Shown: positions 3,905 through 57,647 of the stretch, piece by piece
Numbering within the stretch: position 1 is the first letter of the stretch
How the letters are laid out: each line of letters begins with the position of its first letter
Source of the DNA: a virus
Taxonomy: Duplodnaviria; Caudoviricetes
DNA: 64,000 bases
Reading direction: 5' to 3' (one strand)
IMG/VR virus record: IMGVR_UViG_3300005573_000008
Coordinates: 5,641-69,640 of that record
The notes under the pieces: generated by a model
The model's input: only the letters and a program-made list of their open reading frames with translations
Told to the model about the DNA's origin: nothing
The model's database searches: none
Position numbers and translations under genes: made by a program

Positions 3905-6900
3905 TTGCCGCCGCAACGCGAACACATGTTCCATGGAATCACTGCGATGGATGAAAACATCCTGGTCGAGCTGGAAGGTGACGCGGGTCCGGCGACGGCG
4001 GCCATTGACGAGGCCATCGCGTCACTGGACGGGTTGAGCGAGGCGGCACAGGCCGTTGCGGACACGATTGACGCGTCGCTGGGCGGTCTGGAAGATACGT
4101 TCGCCAGCATTTCCAGCTCGGTCGGGGGGTTGGATGCCATCTTTGGTTCTCTACAAGAGAACCTGGCAGCGCTGTCCGACAGTATCGCCGCAGCGAGTGA
4201 CAGTGTGGATGCGCTGGGAAGCTCCGCCGATGCCGCGAGCACGGGCATCGGCGCGCTCGATGCCGCTGCCGCCAGCGCGACCTCGGAACTCACCGGACTG
4301 AGCACGTCAGCGGACACAGCGGCCGGCAGTCTCGACGCGGCCCGAGGGTCCAGCGAAGGGTTCGGCGGCGGCATGGGCAACATGACCATGCCCTTGCTGG
4401 CAGCGGGCGCGGCGGTCGCGGGGGTGGGCATCGGCGCGCTCAAGATGGCCAGCGACTACCAGAGCAGCATGTCGGTCGTGCAGGCGCTCACCGGTCAGAC
4501 CGCGCAGCAGACGCAGGCGTTCAGCCAGCAAGTGCTGGCGATGTCGGGGCAGCTCGGCGTGCCCGCCAAACAACTCAGTGACGGCCTGTACTACGTCCTC
4601 TCGGCGGGCGTCAAAGCCTCGGACGCGATGGGCGTGCTGAAGGTGGTCACCGAGGCCAGCGCGGCTGGCATGGTGGACGCCAGCACCGATGCCGACGCGC
4701 TCACCAGCGCGATCAACGCCTACGGCGCGGGCGCGAGCCAGGCGCAAAACTACCAGGACATGCTGCTGGTCGCGCTGCGCGACGGCAAGACAACGATGCA
4801 GGAGTTGTCGAGCAGCATCGGACGCGCGGCGGTCACGGGCAATGCGGCGGGCTTCAGCTTCAACCAGGTCGCCGCCGCCATGTCCACGATGACCCTGTCC
4901 GGCGCGTCGGCGCACATCGCGGGCATGCAACTCTCCAACCTGATGCGCCAGGTGGGCATCAACGCCAGCACCGTCGCCACCGACGCCAAGAAGATGGGGC
5001 TGTCGTTTGACAGCACCAAGTTCGCCAGCATGAGCCTGTTCCAGCGGCTGCAATACCTGCAAGAGATCACCAAGGGCAACAAGGCCGAGATGCTCAAGCT
5101 CACCGGCGGCGCGGCGGGCTTCCAGGCGGCCATGATGCTGCTCAACCAGGGCGGCGCGCAGTACACCAAAATCCTGGGCGACATGGCCCACAGCCAGGGG
5201 ATGACCGCCAACGCGTTCGCGGTCCACGAGCAGACGATGGCGGCTGAGTGGGACCATCTGAAGGTGGCGGGTGAGAATGCGCTGATCAAATTGGGTGACG
5301 CGCTGGAGCCGCTGGTGAAGGCGATTGGCGACAAGATCCTGCCCGCGCTCAACAAGTTCTCGGCCTGGGCCAGCGCGCATCCCGCCGCCATGCGCACCGC
5401 GTTTCTCGGCATCGCCGCGGCGGTCGCTGCGGTCGCGACCGCCTTCCTGGCCTTCAGACCGGTCGGTGGCATGATCTCAGGCGTCTTCAATGGCATGCTT
5501 GGCAAGGGCTCGACTCTTGGCAAGCTGTTCCTCGGCCTCAAAGGAGGCATGGGCTCGGTCGTTGGCGAGGCGAGCCGGTTCGGGACCGCCTTTGGTGAGG
5601 GCATCTCGACCAACCTGCTCAAGTTTGGGCTGGCGGTGCGACATCCCGGACTGGCGCTGGACGTGCTCAAAGGGAAGCTGGCCGACCTGGCCAAGATTGG
5701 CCCGAACGCGCTGTCCTTCATCGGCAAGGCGGCTGGCCAATTCGGCACGTTCGCGGGCAAGCTGGGCGACATGGCGGGTATGCTGGGCAACCCGGCCCAG
5801 ATGCTCGGCCTGCTCCGTACCGGCTTCATGGGCGCGGCTCAAGGGGCGCTGTCCGCGATACCCGCGCTGGCGGGCATGGCGGCGTCGCTGGGCGCGATCC
5901 TCGTGCCGCTGCTGCTTATCGCTGGCGCGATCGCGCTGGGCATCATCATCTTCACCAGGTTCCACGCGCAGCTGAGCCAGGTCGGTGGGTTCCTGTCGGG
6001 GCAGATGCGCCCGATCTTTACCGATATCCACAACACGGTACAGACCTTCCTGGCGATGGTCCGGCTGCAGTGGCAGGCGACGTGGCCCAGGCTGCGTCCG
6101 GCGGTGCTCGATCTCATCAACGCCTTCAAATCGCTCAGCCCCGTGCTCCAGATCGTCGGTACGGTCATCTCGGTCGTGCTCAAGGTGATTCTGGGGCTGG
6201 TCTCCGGCGTGGTCGGCGGCTTCCTGTCGGCGCTGCCGCAAATCGCCGGATTCTTTGCCGCCGTCTTTCGGCTCATCGGCGACTTTGGCCAGATCATCCA
6301 GGCCATCTTCTCCGGTCAGTGGGGCAAGATTCCCGGCATCATCGGCGACGGACTGCGCCAGATCGGTCTACTCGTCCAAAACGGCCTGGGCTTTGTCCTG
6401 ACCTTCGTCGGCCACACCATTCTCAGCATCGTGCAGTGGTTCGACTCGCTGACCGGCGGCGCGCTGACCGGAGTGGTGAACTTTGTCAAGGGCGTCATCT
6501 CCTTCTTTGAGGGGCTGTTCGACCATCTGGTCGGGCACTCCGTCATTCCTGATCTGGTCAACGGGATCATTCGCTGGCTGACGCAGACCCTGCCAGGCGA
6601 AGTGCTGACTGGCATCTCCAATCTGGTCACACGGGTCATCGCGTGGTTCGCGCAAATGGAAGCCCGCGTGCTCGCGGCCATTACGGCGTTTGTGACAGGT
6701 CTGCTCGATGAAGCCGTGCGCTTAGAGGTGCAGTTCCTCAACACGATCACCCGCATGGTGGACATCGCGCTCGGCTGGTTCGACAGCATGACGAGCGGAG
6801 CCGTCTCCAAGGCAGAAGGGCTCGTCAGTCGGGTCGTGGGCGTCCTGACGGGCCTACCCGGCAAGATCGGGTCGGTCATGCGTGGCCTCATCGCCAACAT

Positions 6901-8316: not shown

Positions 8317-10293
8317 ATGCCGAACATGCTCACCGCCAACCAGAGCAGCGTGGAGACCGACACCAGCGGCTTCGCGGCCTATGTCGGCGGCGGCGGCAGC
8401 ATTAGCCGCGACACGTCGCAGGCGTGGCAGGGCGCGTCCTCGCTGAAGGTGGTGACCGACGGCTCCGGCACCTACCAGTATGTCGATGCCAGAGTGCCCA
8501 TCGAGTACAACGTGGTGCCGGGCCAGGTGTACACGTTCTCGTTCTACATCCTGGGCGCGTCGGCGGCCGGGACGCTGCGCTACTTCGTCGACAGCGATCA
8601 GGGTGCGGTCTCCAGCGTGCAGACGCTGACGCTCGCCACCAGTTGGACGCGCTACAGCGTCACATTTACCGCCCCGACGAACGTCACGGCGCGCTGGTAC
8701 GCGCCTCGCCTCGATACGGGCGGCACAGCACAGGCGTTGACGTTCTGGCTAGACGGCCTGCAACTGGAACAGAACAGCAGCACGACGCCGTGGACGTTAG
8801 GTGTCGGCTCCAACGCCAACCCGTCCGACAGCTCACCACTGCGCTACAAGCAGCAGATGGTGCTGGTCTACAACGCCAGCGGCACATTTCTTGACGTCTG
8901 GCGCGATGCTCCGCTGCTCTCAGGGGTCAAGTACGCCATCAACAGCGCCACGACGCCGCTGCGGGTGCAACTCCCGCGCCCGTTTGACAACTTCGATGAG
9001 GCGGGCGTGGGCGGCAATCGTGGCACGATCGCGCAGGGCAACATCGTGCAGTACTGGCTCTTCGGGCCCAATCTGCCGGCAGGGGGGCTGCTTAAGTTCC
9101 AGGGTGTCATTGACTCCTACGAGCCACAGATTCTCGATTCCGGCGAAGAGTCGGTGACCGTCACCATCACCCCCTTTGACAGCGTGCTCGCCGATGAGGG
9201 GCTGGTGCTGGGGCAGAGCTTTGGCACACCAGGAGTCTCCAGCACGTACGTCGATCCCGTCGCCATCTTTACCTGGTTCTTCACCAACGACGACAGTCTG
9301 ACCGGCAAACCGTACATGGGTTCCATGACGCAGGATCCGAACAATCCGTCATCCTCAGGGAACCTCGTCGCCTACACGTTCGAGAACCAGTCCATCAAGA
9401 GCATCTTTGACACGCTCGTCACGATGCTGCCGGCCAACTGGTTCTATCGCTGCAATCCCGACAAGACGGTGACGCTCAACGTCGCACCCACGACGGCACA
9501 GCACCAGTTCATCCTGGGCCAGCATATCGCGGTGCCACAGTACCGCAAGGACTGGACAAATCTCAAGAACGTCGTGCGGGTAGTCGGCACCGGCCTGGCG
9601 ACCTCGCTGACCACGGCACTTGCCAGCGGCACGCAGTATACCAGTCTGGCGGTTGCGCCCTTGCCAGTGGGGGTGATCGCGGGCCAGGAACTGGTGATCA
9701 ATGGCAACGGCTCACCGCAGCAAACCGTGACCGTCTCAGCAGATACGGCACAGAATGCGACCAGCGTGCCCGTGAATGCGTTCACGGCCAACAGCAATTA
9801 CGCAGCGCAGACACAGGTGCAGATTCTGGTGCAGGCCACAGCGCAAGGGACGGATCTCTCGACCTTCGGCGCGCGCGTGCTGCAGCTCGCTGACAGCCGT
9901 CTCACCGATCAGCATTCGTGTGAAGTCGTCGCGCAAGGGCTGCTCAACCAGTATGATCGCATGCTGGTGCGCACCAAGCTGCGTATCGTGGACTATCGCG
10001 GCGATGCCAACACGGGGCTGGGATATGACATCGAGAGCATTCAGCCAGGCGATACGTGTCAGATTGTGAACCCATCGGCGAATGCCGCTGACACCCTGTG
10101 GGACGTGTCGCAGTGGGACGTCGGCTACTGGGATTTCTCGCCGGCGGCGGCCCTTGACCAGGTAGCCGTCATCGTGAGCGTGACGTATCGCTGGGACTAT
10201 GTGGATCTTGAAATTGCCTCACTTGCACCATCGCAGGACGTGCAACTGCTCGCCCTGCAGACGATGCTTCAGGATTATACGTTAGGCCGGTGA
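8317..10293 (+). CDS. Tail hub / Tal-like protein with N-terminal carbohydrate-binding-like module
   Basis: The N-terminal ~165 aa resemble CBM4/9-type phage modules (N.S.E...W.RYSVTFTAP...FWLDGLQLEQ); followed by a hub-like region; located after Dit. Confidence 0.7.
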   Translation: MPNMLTANQSSVETDTSGFAAYVGGGGSISRDTSQAWQGASSLKVVTDGSGTYQYVDARVPIEYNVVPGQVYTFSFYILGASAAGTLRYFVDSDQGAVSSVQTLTLATSWTRYSVTFTAPTNVTARWYAPRLDTGGTAQALTFWLDGLQLEQNSSTTPWTLGVGSNANPSDSSPLRYKQQMVLVYNASGTFLDVWRDAPLLSGVKYAINSATTPLRVQLPRPFDNFDEAGVGGNRGTIAQGNIVQYWLFGPNLPAGGLLKFQGVIDSYEPQILDSGEESVTVTITPFDSVLADEGLVLGQSFGTPGVSSTYVDPVAIFTWFFTNDDSLTGKPYMGSMTQDPNNPSSSGNLVAYTFENQSIKSIFDTLVTMLPANWFYRCNPDKTVTLNVAPTTAQHQFILGQHIAVPQYRKDWTNLKNVVRVVGTGLATSLTTALASGTQYTSLAVAPLPVGVIAGQELVINGNGSPQQTVTVSADTAQNATSVPVNAFTANSNYAAQTQVQILVQATAQGTDLSTFGARVLQLADSRLTDQHSCEVVAQGLLNQYDRMLVRTKLRIVDYRGDANTGLGYDIESIQPGDTCQIVNPSANAADTLWDVSQWDVGYWDFSPAAALDQVAVIVSVTYRWDYVDLEIASLAPSQDVQLLALQTMLQDYTLGR

Positions 10294-10901
10294 CCACCAT
10301 GAGCATGCCACGACCCAACTCCATCTCACCTGCCCAGCAGCGTGCAGCACGGGCACGCCAGAACCGGATGATTCGCGAGAGCCAGGCCAAACACCTGCTG
10401 CCCAATCCCGCACCCGCGCCTCAGCCGGGGCGCGCTCCGGCGGGCAAGCGGTTCACATTGGCCGATGTCAGGCGCGTGCAGGTGGACGTGACGGCCGCGG
10501 CACACGGGCGCATCGTGGCCAGCACGCAGCAGGGGCGGCTGTTCCCGCAGGCGCTTGCCGAGCACTTCGGCGCGGCGGGCAACGTGCGCAAGGTGACGAT
10601 TGACGCGCTGCCCAAGAGCGCGTTCTTTCCCATCGCGCCCGATGAGCGCGACCCGCTGACGGGCGGCGAGCCAATGCTGCTGGTCATCACGGTGACACAC
10701 GCCAACCATCCAGACGTGCCGGAGCACACCTGGTACGTCAATGCCGCCGACCTGAGCGACCTGCATCCCAGAACGCACGAGCCGTTGTTCCAGGCCGCGC
10801 AGGCGGCGCAGGAACTGCACCGGCTCTATCCGCACCGCGACATCCCCGCTGACGCTCCCCGCGCGCCGCGCAGGCGCGCGCGCACGAAAGCCAAGGCATA
10901 A
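10290..10901 (+). CDS. Hypothetical tail-operon protein with basic termini
   Basis: GTGA overlap with the upstream stop; 203 aa; Arg-rich ends. Confidence 0.65.
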   Translation: MTTMSMPRPNSISPAQQRAARARQNRMIRESQAKHLLPNPAPAPQPGRAPAGKRFTLADVRRVQVDVTAAAHGRIVASTQQGRLFPQALAEHFGAAGNVRKVTIDALPKSAFFPIAPDERDPLTGGEPMLLVITVTHANHPDVPEHTWYVNAADLSDLHPRTHEPLFQAAQAAQELHRLYPHRDIPADAPRAPRRRARTKAKA

Positions 10902-10904
10902 CGT

Positions 10905-10972
10905 ATGGCAGGCTTGGGCGCATCCCTCATCACGTTCACGCCCTCAACCCTCATCCGCTCGGCGCAGTTAAT
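10905..10972 (+). pseudogene. Orphaned 5' fragment of the small tail-fibre gene (MAGLGASLITFTPSTLIRSAQ)
   Basis: Near-identical peptide to the start at 12154; it runs into insert sequence and stops at TAG 11028-11030. Confidence 0.8.
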
Positions 10973-10980
10973 TACCGAAC

Positions 10981-11008
10981 TTGTGACTACCGCGCGGAAT
11001 TGTATAAT
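10981..11008 (+). promoter_or_regulatory. Sigma70-type promoter of the GIY-YIG cassette
   Basis: TTGTGA (10981-10986), 16 bp spacer, perfect TATAAT (11003-11008), in an AT-rich patch. Confidence 0.7.
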
Positions 11009-11019
11009 GTATAGTGTAA

Positions 11020-11111
11020 GTGCCGTCTAGGTTGGGATTAGCTACCTCAGCCGAAAAAGGGTTTCTCTAGACCCCCTGGCGGTATCGCATTTAGAGACTC
11101 ACACTAGAGAG
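11020..11111 (+). ncRNA. Structured cis-regulatory leader RNA (three-way junction; loop complementary to the RBS)
   Basis: P1 11020-27/11078-85, P2 11030-36/11046-52, P3 11059-62/11071-74; the P3 loop TTCTCTAG (11063-70) can pair with CTAGAGAG (11104-11111) at the start codon. Folded by eye. Confidence 0.6.
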
Positions 11112-12088
11112 TGAGACCAGTGGACAAGCCTGCCCCTTTACCACTGTGCGGTATCTATGCCGCCACGTGTATGCCCACCGGAAAGCAGTACATCGGTCGC
11201 TCCATTGACATTCAACGGCGCTGGAACGATCATCTCAAGCTTCTTCGCGCTAACAAGCACCACAGCCCCCACTTTCAATATGAGTGGAACAAATACGGAG
11301 AGAAAGCCTTCCAGTGGACAGTGCTGGAACAGTGTTCACTCGACCGGCTTACGGAGCGTGAGCAACACTGGATAGACACGCTCGCGCCGCAACTCAATGT
11401 TGCGTTTCAGGTAGACAAGCCATTTGATTTCACGCCAGAGATACGCCAGCGCATGGCTGAGGCGGCACGACGACGCCTTCAACGAGATGGGCATCCTCAC
11501 GTGGGCAAGAAGTTCAGCGCCGAGTACCGCCACAAGCTCGCCATAGCCCATCTCGGACAGGTGCCATCCAATAAAGGTGTGCCGATCAGTGCTGCTACAC
11601 GTCAACGTGTTTCAGAAGCGGTGCGCGCTCATCACAGTTCTGAAGAGTATCGCGCCCGTGTAAGTGCGTGGCAGACTGGCCGCAAGCAATCAGTGAAAAC
11701 GCGCCAGAAACGGTCGGAATCACTCAAACAGGCGTATGCAGAAGGACGACGTATTTCCTTTAATCTAGGCAAGCCTGCATGGAACAAAGGCAAGACGTGG
11801 GGGCCGGAAACACGAGAAAAGTTGCGCCAGATCGGCCTGGAACGCGCCGCCCGTGGCGAAATATCGACTGCCCAACTCATGACATCAGAGGCGCGCTTGA
11901 AAGCGTACGAGACCAGTCGAGCCAATGGCACACTGGCGCGTCATACCATGCCACATTCTGAGGAGACAAAGCGACGCATCGCGGACAAGAAACGCGGCCA
12001 CGTTCAGAGCGCCGAGACCCGCGCCAAACGGAGCGAGTCGCTCAAACGGGCCTACGCGGAAGGGCGTCGCAAGCGGCAAAGTCAGTAA
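11111..12088 (+). CDS. GIY-YIG homing endonuclease with NUMOD3-type DNA-binding repeats
   Basis: CGIYA...QYIGRS...R W..H...EREQHWI...LN catalytic motifs; repeated GKKFSAE / GRKQSVKTRQKRSESLK / HSEETKRRI motifs. Confidence 0.92.
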   Translation: MRPVDKPAPLPLCGIYAATCMPTGKQYIGRSIDIQRRWNDHLKLLRANKHHSPHFQYEWNKYGEKAFQWTVLEQCSLDRLTEREQHWIDTLAPQLNVAFQVDKPFDFTPEIRQRMAEAARRRLQRDGHPHVGKKFSAEYRHKLAIAHLGQVPSNKGVPISAATRQRVSEAVRAHHSSEEYRARVSAWQTGRKQSVKTRQKRSESLKQAYAEGRRISFNLGKPAWNKGKTWGPETREKLRQIGLERAARGEISTAQLMTSEARLKAYETSRANGTLARHTMPHSEETKRRIADKKRGHVQSAETRAKRSESLKRAYAEGRRKRQSQ

Positions 12089-12102
12089 CGGTTCATCAGA
12101 TC

Positions 12103-12133
12103 GAACGGACAGTGTGCGATACGCTGTCCGTTC
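12103..12133 (+). terminator. Hairpin downstream of the endonuclease gene
   Basis: GAACGGACAG (12103-12)/CTGTCCGTTC (12124-33) perfect 10-bp stem; only a short T tail. Confidence 0.45.
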
Positions 12134-12153
12134 TTAGTGCTAGGGGGTAGCGA

Positions 12154-12523
12154 ATGGCCGGTCTCGGCGCAACGCTCATCACGTTTCTCGCCCTCAACAT
12201 TAATCCGCTCGGCTGATGTCAACTCGAATCTCGCGGCGCTCAACGGCGCGAGTGCTCCGTCGTTTACCACGATCACGGTGTCGGGCCTGGCGACGGTGGG
12301 CAAGCTGACGTCGGATGGCGGCAAGATCACCAGCGATGGCGCGGGCAACCTGTCCATCGTGGGACTAACCGCGACCGGCACGATCTCCGGCGCGATTGCT
12401 GCCACGGCACTCACGCTCAACGGCAACCCCGTCCCGATCACCGATACCGCCGGGCAGAAAATCTGGACGGGCACGACCGCGCCGAGCAGTCCAAACATCG
12501 GCGACATCTGGATTAAAGCGTAG
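12154..12523 (+). CDS. Small tail-fibre/adaptor protein with an apparent +1 frameshift at 12184-12186
   Basis: RBS GGGGG then ATG 12154 MAGLGATLIT; an extra T shifts the frame; the +1 frame continues FSPSTLIRSADVNSNL... to the C-terminal TAPSSPNIGDIWIKA. Confidence 0.7.
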
Positions 12524-12532
12524 GCGGTATAC

Positions 12533-13876
12533 ATGGGCACGAAGACATTCGGCAACACCAGCGCGCAGGCCGGTGACACCTACTACTCCACCGCCAACGG
12601 CACCTCGTGGGCCTCCGGTTCGACGGGCACCGCGCCGGAGGAGATGTACATCGACAACATCTACATCTACTGCGGCTCACACGATGGCGGCGCGAGTTCC
12701 TTCACCTTCGGCGTCTTCGACGGCAGCCTGAACCTGCTCTCCTCCACCGGCAGCTATTCGTACGGCACCGGCTACGGCTGGAATCATGGCTCGCTCGGCG
12801 CTGGCTCCTACTGCCATATCGCGTCCGGCGCGCTGTTCAAGGCCGGGTTCTTCGCCACGGGGCAGGGGTCGCAAATTCAGTGCGACACGAACACGACCAA
12901 CGGCAGTTTCTACATCCAACTCAACACCAGCAGCCTGGGCAGCATGGGCGGGGCGATGCACGACACCGGCTCCGGCAACCTCCAGTGGTATGTCACGTAT
13001 TTCCCGCACGCCACGATCTCCGGCCTGTCTTCGTCGAGCGGTACCGTTGGCCAGAACATCGCCGTCTACGGGCAAAGCTTCTCGGCGGGCATCGCGTCCG
13101 TCACGCTCTCCGGCGTCGGCTGCTCCTACTCGGTGCAGAGCGATAGCCAGTTGACCTTCACCGTGCCAGCGGGCGCGAACAGCGGCACGCTGACGGTCAC
13201 GACCTACGCCGGTCAGGCGAGTTACAGCACGTTCTACGTCGTGCCGACCTTCAGCAGTCTGTCGGCGTCCAGCGGGCACACGGGCGATACCGTCTCGATC
13301 TACGGCACGGGCTTCGTCCAGGTCAACGGCGTCTATTTCAACGGCGTCGCTGCCAACTACAGCGTCATCAGCGACACGCAGATCAACGCCACCGTGCCTG
13401 CCGCCGCCACGACCGGCCCGATCCATATTGCCACGGCGGGCGGCAACGCCTACAGCGGCACGTTTAGCATCCTGCCCACCATCAGCGGCTTCAGTCCGAC
13501 CAGCGGCGGCGTCGGCACGGCGGTGACGATCAACGGGTCGGGCTTCGCGGACGCCACGGGCGTGCAGTTTAACGGCACCGCCGCAGGCAGCGTGACGGTC
13601 AATTCGGACACCCAGATCACCGCCAGCGTGCCGTCGGGGGCCACCACTGGCCCGATCACGGTCACCGGCAATGGCGGCAGCGTCGCCAGCGGCACCAACT
13701 TCACCGTTGCCAGCGCCTACGTCTATCGCAACGTCAGCGGCACGAACGAGTGGGTGGACGCGTCCGAGGTCGCTGTCTACCGCAACGTCAGCGGCACGGA
13801 CGAGATGGTCATCGCCACCGGCACGTACGTCTACCGCGATGTCAACGGCACGCCGCAATGGGTGATCGCATCATGA
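12533..13876 (+). CDS. Tail fibre / receptor-binding protein with tandem IPT/TIG-like domains
   Basis: Three repeats of P.I..LS.SSG..G..V.I.G..F....V.F.G.....V.SD.QI...VP.GA.TG.I.V; C-terminal triple YRNVSGT repeat. Confidence 0.8.
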   Translation: MGTKTFGNTSAQAGDTYYSTANGTSWASGSTGTAPEEMYIDNIYIYCGSHDGGASSFTFGVFDGSLNLLSSTGSYSYGTGYGWNHGSLGAGSYCHIASGALFKAGFFATGQGSQIQCDTNTTNGSFYIQLNTSSLGSMGGAMHDTGSGNLQWYVTYFPHATISGLSSSSGTVGQNIAVYGQSFSAGIASVTLSGVGCSYSVQSDSQLTFTVPAGANSGTLTVTTYAGQASYSTFYVVPTFSSLSASSGHTGDTVSIYGTGFVQVNGVYFNGVAANYSVISDTQINATVPAAATTGPIHIATAGGNAYSGTFSILPTISGFSPTSGGVGTAVTINGSGFADATGVQFNGTAAGSVTVNSDTQITASVPSGATTGPITVTGNGGSVASGTNFTVASAYVYRNVSGTNEWVDASEVAVYRNVSGTDEMVIATGTYVYRDVNGTPQWVIAS

Positions 13877-55610: not shown

Positions 55611-57647
55611 ATGAGCCGACGTCGTAAGCGCACAACCAGTACCCGCGCCGCCCGGCCCGACGCCACTGTGGTGCTGGCCGCGATCCGCGATGCGCTCGAC
55701 ACGAATGCTGTGTCCGGCGGCGAGTTCACGGCGGACGCCGCCAGAGCAGCGCGTACGGCCGTGCTGCAGCTGCGCCAGCTCGCGCCGCAGTTGCACGCCT
55801 TCCCTGATCTGCTGGGTGAGATGCGACATGTGCTGGCACAGGCGGAATCACGCGCCCTCGCATTTGCCAGCGCGCGTCCGGAATTGCTCAAGTCCGCTCC
55901 GACCGGTAGCTCGCCAATCGCGGCGGGTGGAGCGGCAGGCGCGTGGGCGGGCATGCACGCGCAGCGGACCGATGCGGTTGGCGTGCCCAACGCCGACTTT
56001 CTGCGCCGGCTCGCCAGCAAGAACCCATGGGTGAGTGCCGCTATCACGACGCGCAAGCAGCAGATCGGGCGCGCCGACATCGCGGTCGTTCCGGCAGATG
56101 AGACGAAGCCATTCAATGCGAAGGTTCAGCGCACCGTTGAGCGACTGCTCAATTTCCCGAATGAGTATCGTGACTCCTACCGCTCGCTCATGGAGCCCGT
56201 GCTCGATGACATCCTGGTGCTCGATCGCGGGTGCATCAGCAAGTCCATGGATGCCCGCCGAATCCCCCACGGCCTCTACTACGAAGACGGCAGCACGATC
56301 AAGATCGTCGCGGACTGGAACGGCGATCCCGCTCTACCACGGTATGTCTACGCCGCGCCGGACGGCATACGTCTCGTGCCGCTGCGCAATGACGAGCTGA
56401 TCTGCATCATGGCCAATGCCGCGAGTTACCGCTTCGGCCTGTCTCCGGTGCAGGTGCTGCTCGACACCATTCGCGCCGACCTCGCCGCAACCGACAAAGC
56501 GGCCAACCTCGTGCGTGACGTGCCGCCTCCGCATCTGGTGCATCTGAAGAACGCGACACAGAACCAGGTCAACGCGCTGCGCAGCGCGTACGAGATGGAT
56601 GTGGCGGGCAAACGGGAACTGATGTTTATGGGCACGGATGGCGACATCTCCGTCTATCCCATGATGTTCAGTCTCAAAGACAACCAGTTCCTGGAGTGGC
56701 AGACGTATCTGGCGCGCAAGATTTGCGCGGTCTTTCAGATCAGCCCACAGCAGATCGGCATCACGTTCGACATCAACAAAGCGACGGCTGAGGTGCAGCA
56801 GGACATCACCGAAGACGCTGGGCTCATCCCGCTGTTGCTGCTGCTCGAAGAGTTTTTGAATCGTGAACTGCTGGCCGACTTCGCGCCCGTCGACAAAGAC
56901 GGCCGGCCGAACATAGACGCGCTGAATCTGCGGATCATCTATCCCGAGGTGTCCGAAATCAGCCGGATGCTGCATGCCGAACGTGTGCTCAAGATGGCGC
57001 TCGGCGGCCTGTCCGGCTTGCCGCTCCTCACGCCAAACATGGCGCTCAAGATGCTCGGTGAGGAGCCGGTACCTGGCGGCAACACCTTCTGGGTGGACAC
57101 GAAGAACGGCCCGATGCCCTGGCTTTCGTATGACGGCGAGACCGGTGACTACGGCCGGTTCGCCACCGCCGGCGACCTGGGTGCGCAGGACCCGGAAGGC
57201 GGGATCGACGAGGACGAAGCGACACCCAGGGACACGACGCAGGAAAAGCCGGACCGTGGCCGCCCCACGGATGCGCCCGGTGGACCAGCGGATCAAAGCG
57301 CGACAACGACGGACGACGCACCGAGCGTGACGCCTCCCACGACCGCGGCCAATGATGCAACCGCCAGTGCACCTGCCACGGCAGCCGCCAAACAGGTGCG
57401 TCGTGTCATCCGCCGGGACACACGCAAGCCCGGCCAGCACTGGCGACCCGAACATGAGCGGACGGTGCCACTCATGCTGACGGGCATGTCAGGCGACAGG
57501 AAGCCGCGCAAGCTCGGCAAAGTGCGGCCTGAGGTGGCAGCCGCCCATCACAAGACGGTCGATGAGGTGACCGCCGCCGCCCAGCTGGCAACAGATCTCC
57601 GGGCCATCTTCGAGGAGGCGCAGCAGCGCGGCACACTGGCTGGATAA
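55611..57647 (+). CDS. Portal protein with N- and C-terminal extensions
   Basis: Follows TerL; DGSTIK, YRFGLSPV, FLEWQTYLARKICAVFQISPQQIG portal motifs. Confidence 0.88.
   Translation: MSRRRKRTTSTRAARPDATVVLAAIRDALDTNAVSGGEFTADAARAARTAVLQLRQLAPQLHAFPDLLGEMRHVLAQAESRALAFASARPELLKSAPTGSSPIAAGGAAGAWAGMHAQRTDAVGVPNADFLRRLASKNPWVSAAITTRKQQIGRADIAVVPADETKPFNAKVQRTVERLLNFPNEYRDSYRSLMEPVLDDILVLDRGCISKSMDARRIPHGLYYEDGSTIKIVADWNGDPALPRYVYAAPDGIRLVPLRNDELICIMANAASYRFGLSPVQVLLDTIRADLAATDKAANLVRDVPPPHLVHLKNATQNQVNALRSAYEMDVAGKRELMFMGTDGDISVYPMMFSLKDNQFLEWQTYLARKICAVFQISPQQIGITFDINKATAEVQQDITEDAGLIPLLLLLEEFLNRELLADFAPVDKDGRPNIDALNLRIIYPEVSEISRMLHAERVLKMALGGLSGLPLLTPNMALKMLGEEPVPGGNTFWVDTKNGPMPWLSYDGETGDYGRFATAGDLGAQDPEGGIDEDEATPRDTTQEKPDRGRPTDAPGGPADQSATTTDDAPSVTPPTTAANDATASAPATAAAKQVRRVIRRDTRKPGQHWRPEHERTVPLMLTGMSGDRKPRKLGKVRPEVAAAHHKTVDEVTAAAQLATDLRAIFEEAQQRGTLAG

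Follow-up and report, generated by a model that had tools for sequence, protein, structure and literature searches.

A GIY-YIG endonuclease cassette inside a putative phage tail-module gene is followed by a second, frame-offset copy of the gene start

Homing endonuclease genes usually spare the host gene, being placed between genes or hidden in introns or inteins. The GIY-YIG endonuclease cassette described here appears to take a third route in phage, entering a coding sequence and bringing a new ribosome-binding site (RBS) and first codons with it. It lies within a putative tail-module gene (the target gene) in a 64,000-nucleotide (nt) stretch of viral DNA, referred to below as the window, which covers positions 5,641 to 69,640 of IMG/VR record IMGVR_UViG_3300005573_000008 and makes up most of that 69.6-kb record. 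We call the phage W; the cassette recurs at this site in a second phage, L. The record bears direct terminal repeats, and the recovery of W as a complete record with such repeats suggests a replicating phage. W is temperate, and its host probably belongs to the Ktedonobacterales of hot springs. No blastn match was found among phage GenBank records. The coordinates of the features are collected in Table 1.

The 5′ end of the target gene is present twice, at 10905–10963 (copy 1) and 12154–12213 (copy 2), with the endonuclease gene between. A repeat search returned two pairs of blocks, 10890–10936/12139–12185 at a spacing of 1249 nt and 10935–10963/12185–12213 at a spacing of 1250 nt, so that the register jumps by one base at TT/TTC. 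The duplication begins 15 nt 5′ of the ATG and takes in the stop codon of the upstream gene, and the relic of an upstream-gene homologue in front of copy 2 (12139–12153) resembles the junction AAGGGGTAGCG of L009, a relative that lacks the cassette. The open reading frame (ORF) of copy 1 starts at ATG 10905 (MAGLGASLITFTPSTLIRSAQ...), runs into the cassette and meets a stop at 11028–11030. Read from ATG 12154, copy 2 gives MAGLGATLITF and ends at TGA 12214–12216 after 20 codons. Within W, the two copies differ by seven synonymous and two conservative codon changes in 20 codons (substitution counts between the copies and between W and L were made by eye from the printed sequences). These results bear out three claims of an initial annotation made from the letters of the window, namely that the same N-terminus occurs on both sides of the endonuclease (at 10905 and 12154), that the copies differ mainly at synonymous positions and that copy 1 is orphaned, its ORF stopping at 11030. 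The annotation had also described copy 2 as having its own RBS and continuing into the gene body; the RBS stands, as a GGGGG Shine–Dalgarno (SD) sequence, but the simple continuation does not, because the frame stops after 20 codons. Beyond 10963, copy 1 differs in both length and sequence between the two phages (a 41-amino-acid (aa) ORF in W versus an 18-aa ORF in L), and the zero-frame tails of copy 2 after F11 are also unlike in W and L.

The gene between the copies encodes an endonuclease with a GIY-YIG domain (Pfam PF01541, 1.1e-9, 38.9 bits, cut-off 22.6) and a NUMOD3 DNA-binding extension (PF07460, 5.9e-8, 33 bits, cut-off 20.4), which matches PHROG 314, 'homing endonuclease' (1.9e-32), and the catalytic domain of I-TevI (1mk0/1ln0, ~7e-8; 1mk0 6.7e-8). 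The gene is not embedded in an intron or intein and has its own promoter-like site, leader RNA and RBS. The leader folds as a three-way junction with three compensatory pairs among the sequences of W, L and a further contig, L012 (regions 11020–11116 of the window, 4706–4800 of the phage L assembly L002 and 324–420 of L012). Its scores against Rfam RF02996 are 31.5 bits in W, 27.7 in L and 29.1 in L012, none of which reaches the gathering score of 35.8, and we describe it as int-alpA-like rather than file it as a member of RF02996. A hairpin at ~11084–11116, after the leader, covers the endonuclease RBS. A second hairpin follows the endonuclease stop (12103–12133); between W and L two of its pairs change on both sides (A-T to G-C and C-G to T-A) and one pair changes on one side, and a terminator scan returned nothing at this position. 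Because the pairing is kept and a U tract is lacking, this hairpin is probably not a simple terminator.

Splicing was addressed with Rfam scans, which returned no group I or II intron or other ribozyme at E<=10 over 10000–13500 and no intron or ribozyme at gathering score across the whole window. Only ~150 nt and ~65 nt of non-coding sequence lie beside the endonuclease ORF, and an intron-encoded endonuclease was rejected, as no ribozyme core flanks the ORF. By every feature checked here, the element reads as a free-standing GIY-YIG homing endonuclease. The initial annotation, which had seen no intron and had proposed a non-splicing homing element with its own promoter and a regulatory RNA, is upheld on both counts by the Rfam scans, the promoter-like site and the structured leader.

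Table 1 Features of the cassette and its surroundings (positions in the window; W and L denote the two cassette-bearing phages)
Feature	Coordinates	Strand	Basis or remark
Upstream neighbour gene, 203 aa, conserved left flank	10290..10901	+	72% identical in phage L
Copy 1, native start and codons 1-20, now orphaned	10905..10963	+	Gapless alignment to cassette-less homologues
Filler GCAG, between the end of native homology and the cassette	10964..10967		In L, 8 different bases and a shorter copy 1
Cassette block common to W and L, from TTAATTACCG to the extra T	10968..12186	+	Sliding W/L identity
Sigma-70-like promoter, TTGTGA-16-TATAAT	10981..11008	+	10/12 positions; conserved in L
Three-way-junction leader RNA, int-alpA-like	11020..11097	+	Rfam RF02996, below gathering score
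GIY-YIG/NUMOD3 homing endonuclease gene; start GTG 11120, possibly GTG 11111	11120..12088	+	Pfam, PHROG and structure-family matches
12-bp hairpin 3′ of the endonuclease stop, without a U tract	12103..12133	+	Read from sequence
Relic of an upstream-gene homologue: last codons and stop TAG 12148-12150, now with the copy 2 SD GGGGG 12143-12147	12139..12153	+	
Copy 2, zero frame: ATG with 11 correct codons, followed by 9 unrelated ones and TGA	12154..12216	+	
T_TTC: extra base and candidate +1 shift site (ACG_UUU_C)	12184..12187	+	Alignment of gene starts
Putative tail-module gene body, +1 frame, 112 codons and stop	12185..12523	+	Homologous to proteins of L009, L010, L011 and L019 and to 133 representative proteins

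We compared the locus with relatives that lack the W/L cassette. Homologues of the 203-aa neighbour are present in six of these (L009, L010, L011, L012, L019 and L024); L009, L010, L011 and L024 were reached through these homologues, while L019, on a metagenome-assembled genome of the Ktedonobacterales, was reached through a genome scan. In L009, L010, L011, L019 and L024 (5/5), the neighbour gene is followed directly by one uninterrupted target gene, and the cassette-less genes start M..GLGA.LITF.P.T.I(K/R)SADVN.N. No relative was found with both copies of the gene start but without the endonuclease, an arrangement that the annotation had named as contradicting its idea of a homing insertion.

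Phage L is represented by four assemblies (L002, L003, L013 and L016). A single ENA contig of 384 kb, k141_947251 (L013, L015), carries both W and L in the same orientation, ~130 kb from each other, and they are therefore two related prophages of one host genome, which would give the cassette a chance to pass between them. Sliding identity between W and L is ~70–80% in the flanks (about 75%) and ~60% in copy 1, rises to 93–97% at 10966–11560 and 92–95% at 11942–12060, and falls after the extra T. Synonymous sites in the N-terminal part of the endonuclease are ~10% diverged between the two phages, as judged by eye. With identity high in the cassette and low in the flanks, the cassette was shared far more recently than the phage backbones. 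Contigs in Logan came from two hot-spring metagenome runs, one containing both forms and the second parts of them; no Logan contig joins across the cassette, although these are contigs only, from which rare forms could escape. Beyond W and L we found no further cassette-bearing lineage in DNA-pattern and protein scans of viral contigs, protein scans of metagenome and genome contigs, a search of 5.8 billion proteins and cluster look-ups.

In the middle of the endonuclease gene, where the DNA-binding repeats are encoded (11566–11940), W and L are 55–80% identical and are separated by indels; at either end of the gene the identity is ~95%. Such a patchwork suggests that the DNA-binding region was exchanged.

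A sister cassette was found in L012, where a related GIY-YIG gene lies behind the same leader RNA, with compensatory changes in its helices, one gene upstream of the site used in W and L. Because the leader also precedes this different GIY-YIG gene, it belongs to the endonuclease family and not to the insertion site. When L012 (1–1600) is set against the endonuclease-less L011 (1800–2125), both sides of the insert are 100% identical, with the exception of a recoded tract of ~145 nt immediately upstream of the insert (~72% identity). This is the mark that intron-less homing with co-conversion classically leaves behind. The L012 cassette runs right up to the start codon of the following gene, for which it provides a new SD sequence, and the L012 endonuclease ORF is frameshifted between its GIY-YIG and NUMOD3 parts.

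A single extra base sets the start of copy 2 out of frame with the gene body. Among eight aligned gene starts, an extra base after ACGTT is present only in the two copy 2 sequences, and the extra T recurs in all six assemblies (two of W, four of L), the two W assemblies having 0 mismatches in 2800 nt. In the sequences aligned here, the frame-breaking insertion is strictly linked to the endonuclease cassette. The initial annotation had marked the frame break and left it without interpretation. Its statement that the cassette supplies the interrupted gene with an RBS and a new 5′ end is correct, but its further statement that the cassette repairs the gene fails in the simple sense, since the replacement start is one base off-frame in both W and L. 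Its label of the new 5′ end as cleavage-resistant is a conjecture.

When TTTC is read as one step, the product matches the family consensus from residue 1. The motif ACG_UUU_C is present in both phages, and UUU re-pairs in the +1 frame. The SD sequence, the ATG and the 11 correct codons are intact in W and L. On the 5′ side of the site the two phages differ at two positions, both synonymous in the ATG frame, one of which creates the TAA of L in the body frame, and on the 3′ side the +1 frame is conserved (SPSTLIRSA in W vs. TPSTVIRSS in L) and the zero frame is not; this pattern comes from two lineages and only two substitutions upstream of the site. In phage L, this TAA interrupts the body frame a short way 5′ of the site, and ~67 codons pass without a start codon, although the frame remains open over 486 codons. 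Judged from these sequences, a +1 shift from UUU to UUC would be the only full-length route that works in both W and L. We rejected two other routes: read-through from the endonuclease ORF, which shares the frame in W but is closed off in L by an in-frame TAG and TAA, and reinitiation at the TGATG overlap, whose ATG is in the third frame. Among the 133 hits to the protein family, the lone candidate for another off-frame member (P0028) proved to be an alternative start call with an intact gene. An ARAGORN search for a phage-encoded suppressor tRNA called only an odd tRNA-Pro(cgg).

RNAalifold, applied to W and L together, pairs the SD sequence of copy 2 (GGGGGU, 12143–12148) with (G/A)CCCUC at 12190–12195, just 3′ of the shift site. 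Such a pairing, as modelled, could block initiation at copy 2.

We propose that the locus holds a homing cassette with a replacement RBS and 11 codons that is read through low-level +1 slippage at UUU_C, a proposal that we judge to have about an even chance of being right. The cassette would have lodged at about codon 20 of the target gene, leaving the resident start (copy 1) as a relic that is not translated in sense, and the gene would restart from the SD sequence, ATG and first 11 codons of copy 2. Most ribosomes would make a 20-residue peptide, and a minority would slip with peptidyl-tRNA-Phe from UUU to UUC (+1) to give the full protein with its conserved N-terminus; the predicted trans-frame product of W spans ...GATLITFSPSTLIR (LITFSPSTLIR).

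A further part of the proposal, which we put forward more weakly, is that the extra T stands at the cleavage position of the enzyme. I-TevI-type enzymes bind the insertion site and cut ~23–25 bp upstream of it. The insertion site is marked by the end of native homology at 10963, and the extra T would correspond to a position ~27 bp upstream of it, a distance comparable to the I-TevI geometry, from which the cut position is deduced; the converted tract of L012 is also upstream of its insert. Copy 1 would keep the putative cut position and would have lost the binding site to the cassette. Copy 2, which regenerates the whole target, would need protection, and the extra T together with the synonymous recoding could, by analogy with known elements, supply it.

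Several observations weigh against the frameshift proposal. In W, the body frame is opened with no need of a shift by a GTG at 12137, which, however, lacks an SD sequence and is not conserved in L. The zero-frame codons that follow UUU (CUC and CAC) are common ones, in-frame TTT_C occurs ~50 times in the ORFs of W, and the gene of L itself contains a second in-frame TTTC, at F281, where a shift would be unwanted; any shifting at this motif must therefore be inefficient and low-level. No frameshift stimulator was evident, be it a stop or slow codon in the A site, an SD-like element 5′ of the shift site or a structure, and the sole pairing that RNAalifold gave for W and L, that of the initiation SD with CCCUC 3′ of the site, is not counted as one. 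The cassette is confined to two lineages that reside in one host genome and have shared it recently, so the shared extra T may reflect identity by descent rather than selection, and the +1 frame 3′ of the site could already have been conserved before the insertion. The history of the locus also fits imperfectly. The recently shared block ends sharply at both edges of the cassette, and codons 12–20 differ between W and L in both copies despite ~95% identity within the cassette; within each genome, the two copies differ over these codons mostly at synonymous sites. Simple homing from a donor that bears the duplication predicts that one of the two segments resembles the donor, and as neither is alike between the phages, the simple homing model misfits. 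Possible reasons are that the donors were separate, that recoding of the target was accelerated or that gene conversion was confined to the cassette. Finally, the frameshifting is something that we infer, and the immunity role and the cut site are pure inference.

A rival explanation takes the extra T as a lesion, for example a scar of junction repair, that travels with a selfish cassette. The full-length protein would then be absent and the gene dispensable or truncated, in W maybe starting from GTG 12137. The frameshifted side-tail-fibre gene stf of laboratory lambda is an example of such a dispensable gene. The lack of a frameshift stimulator and the commonness of in-frame TTT_C fit this explanation, as do the confinement of a recently exchanged cassette to two co-resident lineages and the open GTG start in the body frame of W; moreover, homing elements can spread despite a cost, as discussed for MobA (bioRxiv 10.1101/2022.08.31.505936). 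A lesion is harder to reconcile with an SD sequence, ATG and 11 codons that are intact in both phages and differ only twice, both times synonymously, with the 486-codon body of L, which is still open and which cannot be reached from the GTG because of the TAA, with the family-wide conservation of the first 10 residues, and with the recovery of W as a complete record with terminal repeats. We regard the lesion as a serious contender that falls short of an even chance, and recoding, as opposed to a broken gene, as a roughly balanced call.

An ancient, vertically inherited insertion is improbable. Under this explanation copy 1 would still be used, for example as a small N-terminal peptide or as an exon joined by some RNA or DNA rearrangement, and the high identity of the cassette would come from gene conversion between the prophages. 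Copy 1 differs between W and L by ~9 synonymous and 2 conservative changes and one in-frame codon indel, which resembles coding constraint, but divergence of the genes prior to separate invasions would produce this just as readily. Any junction of copy 1 to copy 2 beyond the extra T would keep the reading frame, and the 95%/55–80%/93% mosaic of the endonuclease is what recombination would produce; on the other side, no ribozyme was found, the tails of copy 1 differ between W and L in length and sequence, and no metagenome contig joins across the cassette, though this last point is weak because it comes from contigs only. An artefact of assembly or sequencing as the source of the extra base or of the duplication is refuted for all practical purposes, since the sequence is identical in two W and four L assemblies and metagenome contigs carry both forms.

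The position of the target gene suggests that it belongs to the tail module. The genes run from a tape measure through a Dit-like gene, a 658-aa fibre-like gene and the gene for the 203-aa protein to the target gene, which is followed by the gene for a TIG-domain protein. The tail label is drawn from this order because the target protein has no Pfam or PHROG family and its structural model has no Foldseek match in the PDB. The AlphaFold2 model is confident for residues 1–40 only (predicted local distance difference test, pLDDT, 84–97). A profile search with the N-terminal module returned 133 representative proteins, nearly all of which have the module from residue 1, and its first 10 residues are conserved across the family. 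In phage L the module is fused to a body of >400 aa (~496 aa in total; L002 5825–7313), and in W, L009 and L011 it is a stand-alone protein of ~83–122 aa, such that it seems to be a portable N-terminal adaptor. Elsewhere in the window, the tRNA-Pro(cgg) called by ARAGORN is 98 nt long (56301–56398, minus strand), has its anticodon at position 39 and lies inside a long ORF; the call is probably false or an interrupted tRNA.

If the offset is only a scar, the locus would still show how a selfish element spreads among the two prophages that a cell carries, with a structural gene paying for it. If the offset is read by frameshifting and protects against self-cleavage, the cassette would offer a very small and easily tested +1 frameshift element from a thermophile. 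Among known shift sites, UUU_Ynn is prone to +1 shifting in bacteria, and 'savior indels' are indels that are useful at the DNA level and are offset by low-level frameshifting (PMC5009743). The W/L site shares the UUU_C tetranucleotide and the same logic of compensation with these, and is unlike the +1-prone UUU_Y sites in that its sequence appears to have no stimulatory element.

The W/L cassette can also be compared with free-standing GIY-YIG genes of the I-TevI and T4 Seg type, which move by 'intronless homing'. It is like them in its homologous catalytic domain, its NUMOD3 part, its presence or absence among relatives and its RBS within a hairpin, and its sister cassette in L012 also resembles them in having a recoded, co-converted flank. 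Seg and Mob genes usually sit between genes, unlike the W/L cassette, which lies inside a coding sequence and would compensate with a new RBS and 11 codons. The older literature describes elements that bring in a new gene end and turn the resident one into a relic. In fungal mitochondria, diverged duplicates of gene ends, for example of the C-terminal parts of atp6 and cob, lie beside GIY-YIG or LAGLIDADG ORFs (PMC6279837). There too an endonuclease ORF adjoins a duplicated terminal part of a gene, the two parts having diverged in W and L, but the fungal duplications concern the 3′ end of the gene, with no frame offset reported (PMC6279837), whereas those of W and L concern the 5′ end, in a phage, with an RBS of its own and a +1 offset. 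A limited literature search returned no description of a phage version at the 5′ end with a replacement RBS and start.

The closest comparison is with phage T4, whose gene 60 is, to our knowledge, the one known case of recoding coupled to endonuclease immunity. Should the W/L offset both be read by frameshifting and protect against self-cleavage, such coupling would extend beyond T4 gene 60. The T4 MobA/gene 60 mobile cassette (Bonocora et al. 2011, as cited in PMC5009743) resembles that of W and L in having a free-standing endonuclease inside an ORF, a recoded segment homologous to the target and a non-coding insertion in the target frame, which in T4 needs recoding and blocks self-cleavage. 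The MobA element carries a recoded target segment together with the bypass insert, and for the insert the blockage of self-cleavage was shown experimentally (Manning & Atkins, bioRxiv 10.1101/2022.08.31.505936). The two systems differ in their enzymes, an HNH-type nickase in T4 and a GIY-YIG enzyme in W and L, and in their inserts, the T4 insert being 50 nt long and bypassed at ~50% with take-off and landing codons and that of W and L a single nt at UUU_C. They also differ in their outcome, as the T4 gene is split into two working ORFs and W and L duplicate 20 codons and abandon the old copy. There is no sequence homology between the cassettes, and recoding and immunity in W and L are suggested by analogy. 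We would accordingly only tentatively, and with more doubt than confidence, regard the extra T as a functional part of the mobile element: a one-nt coding gap at the cut position of the endonuclease itself that would block cleavage of copy 2, be decoded by +1 slippage and amount to a minimal equivalent of the T4 gene 60 bypass that evolved independently.

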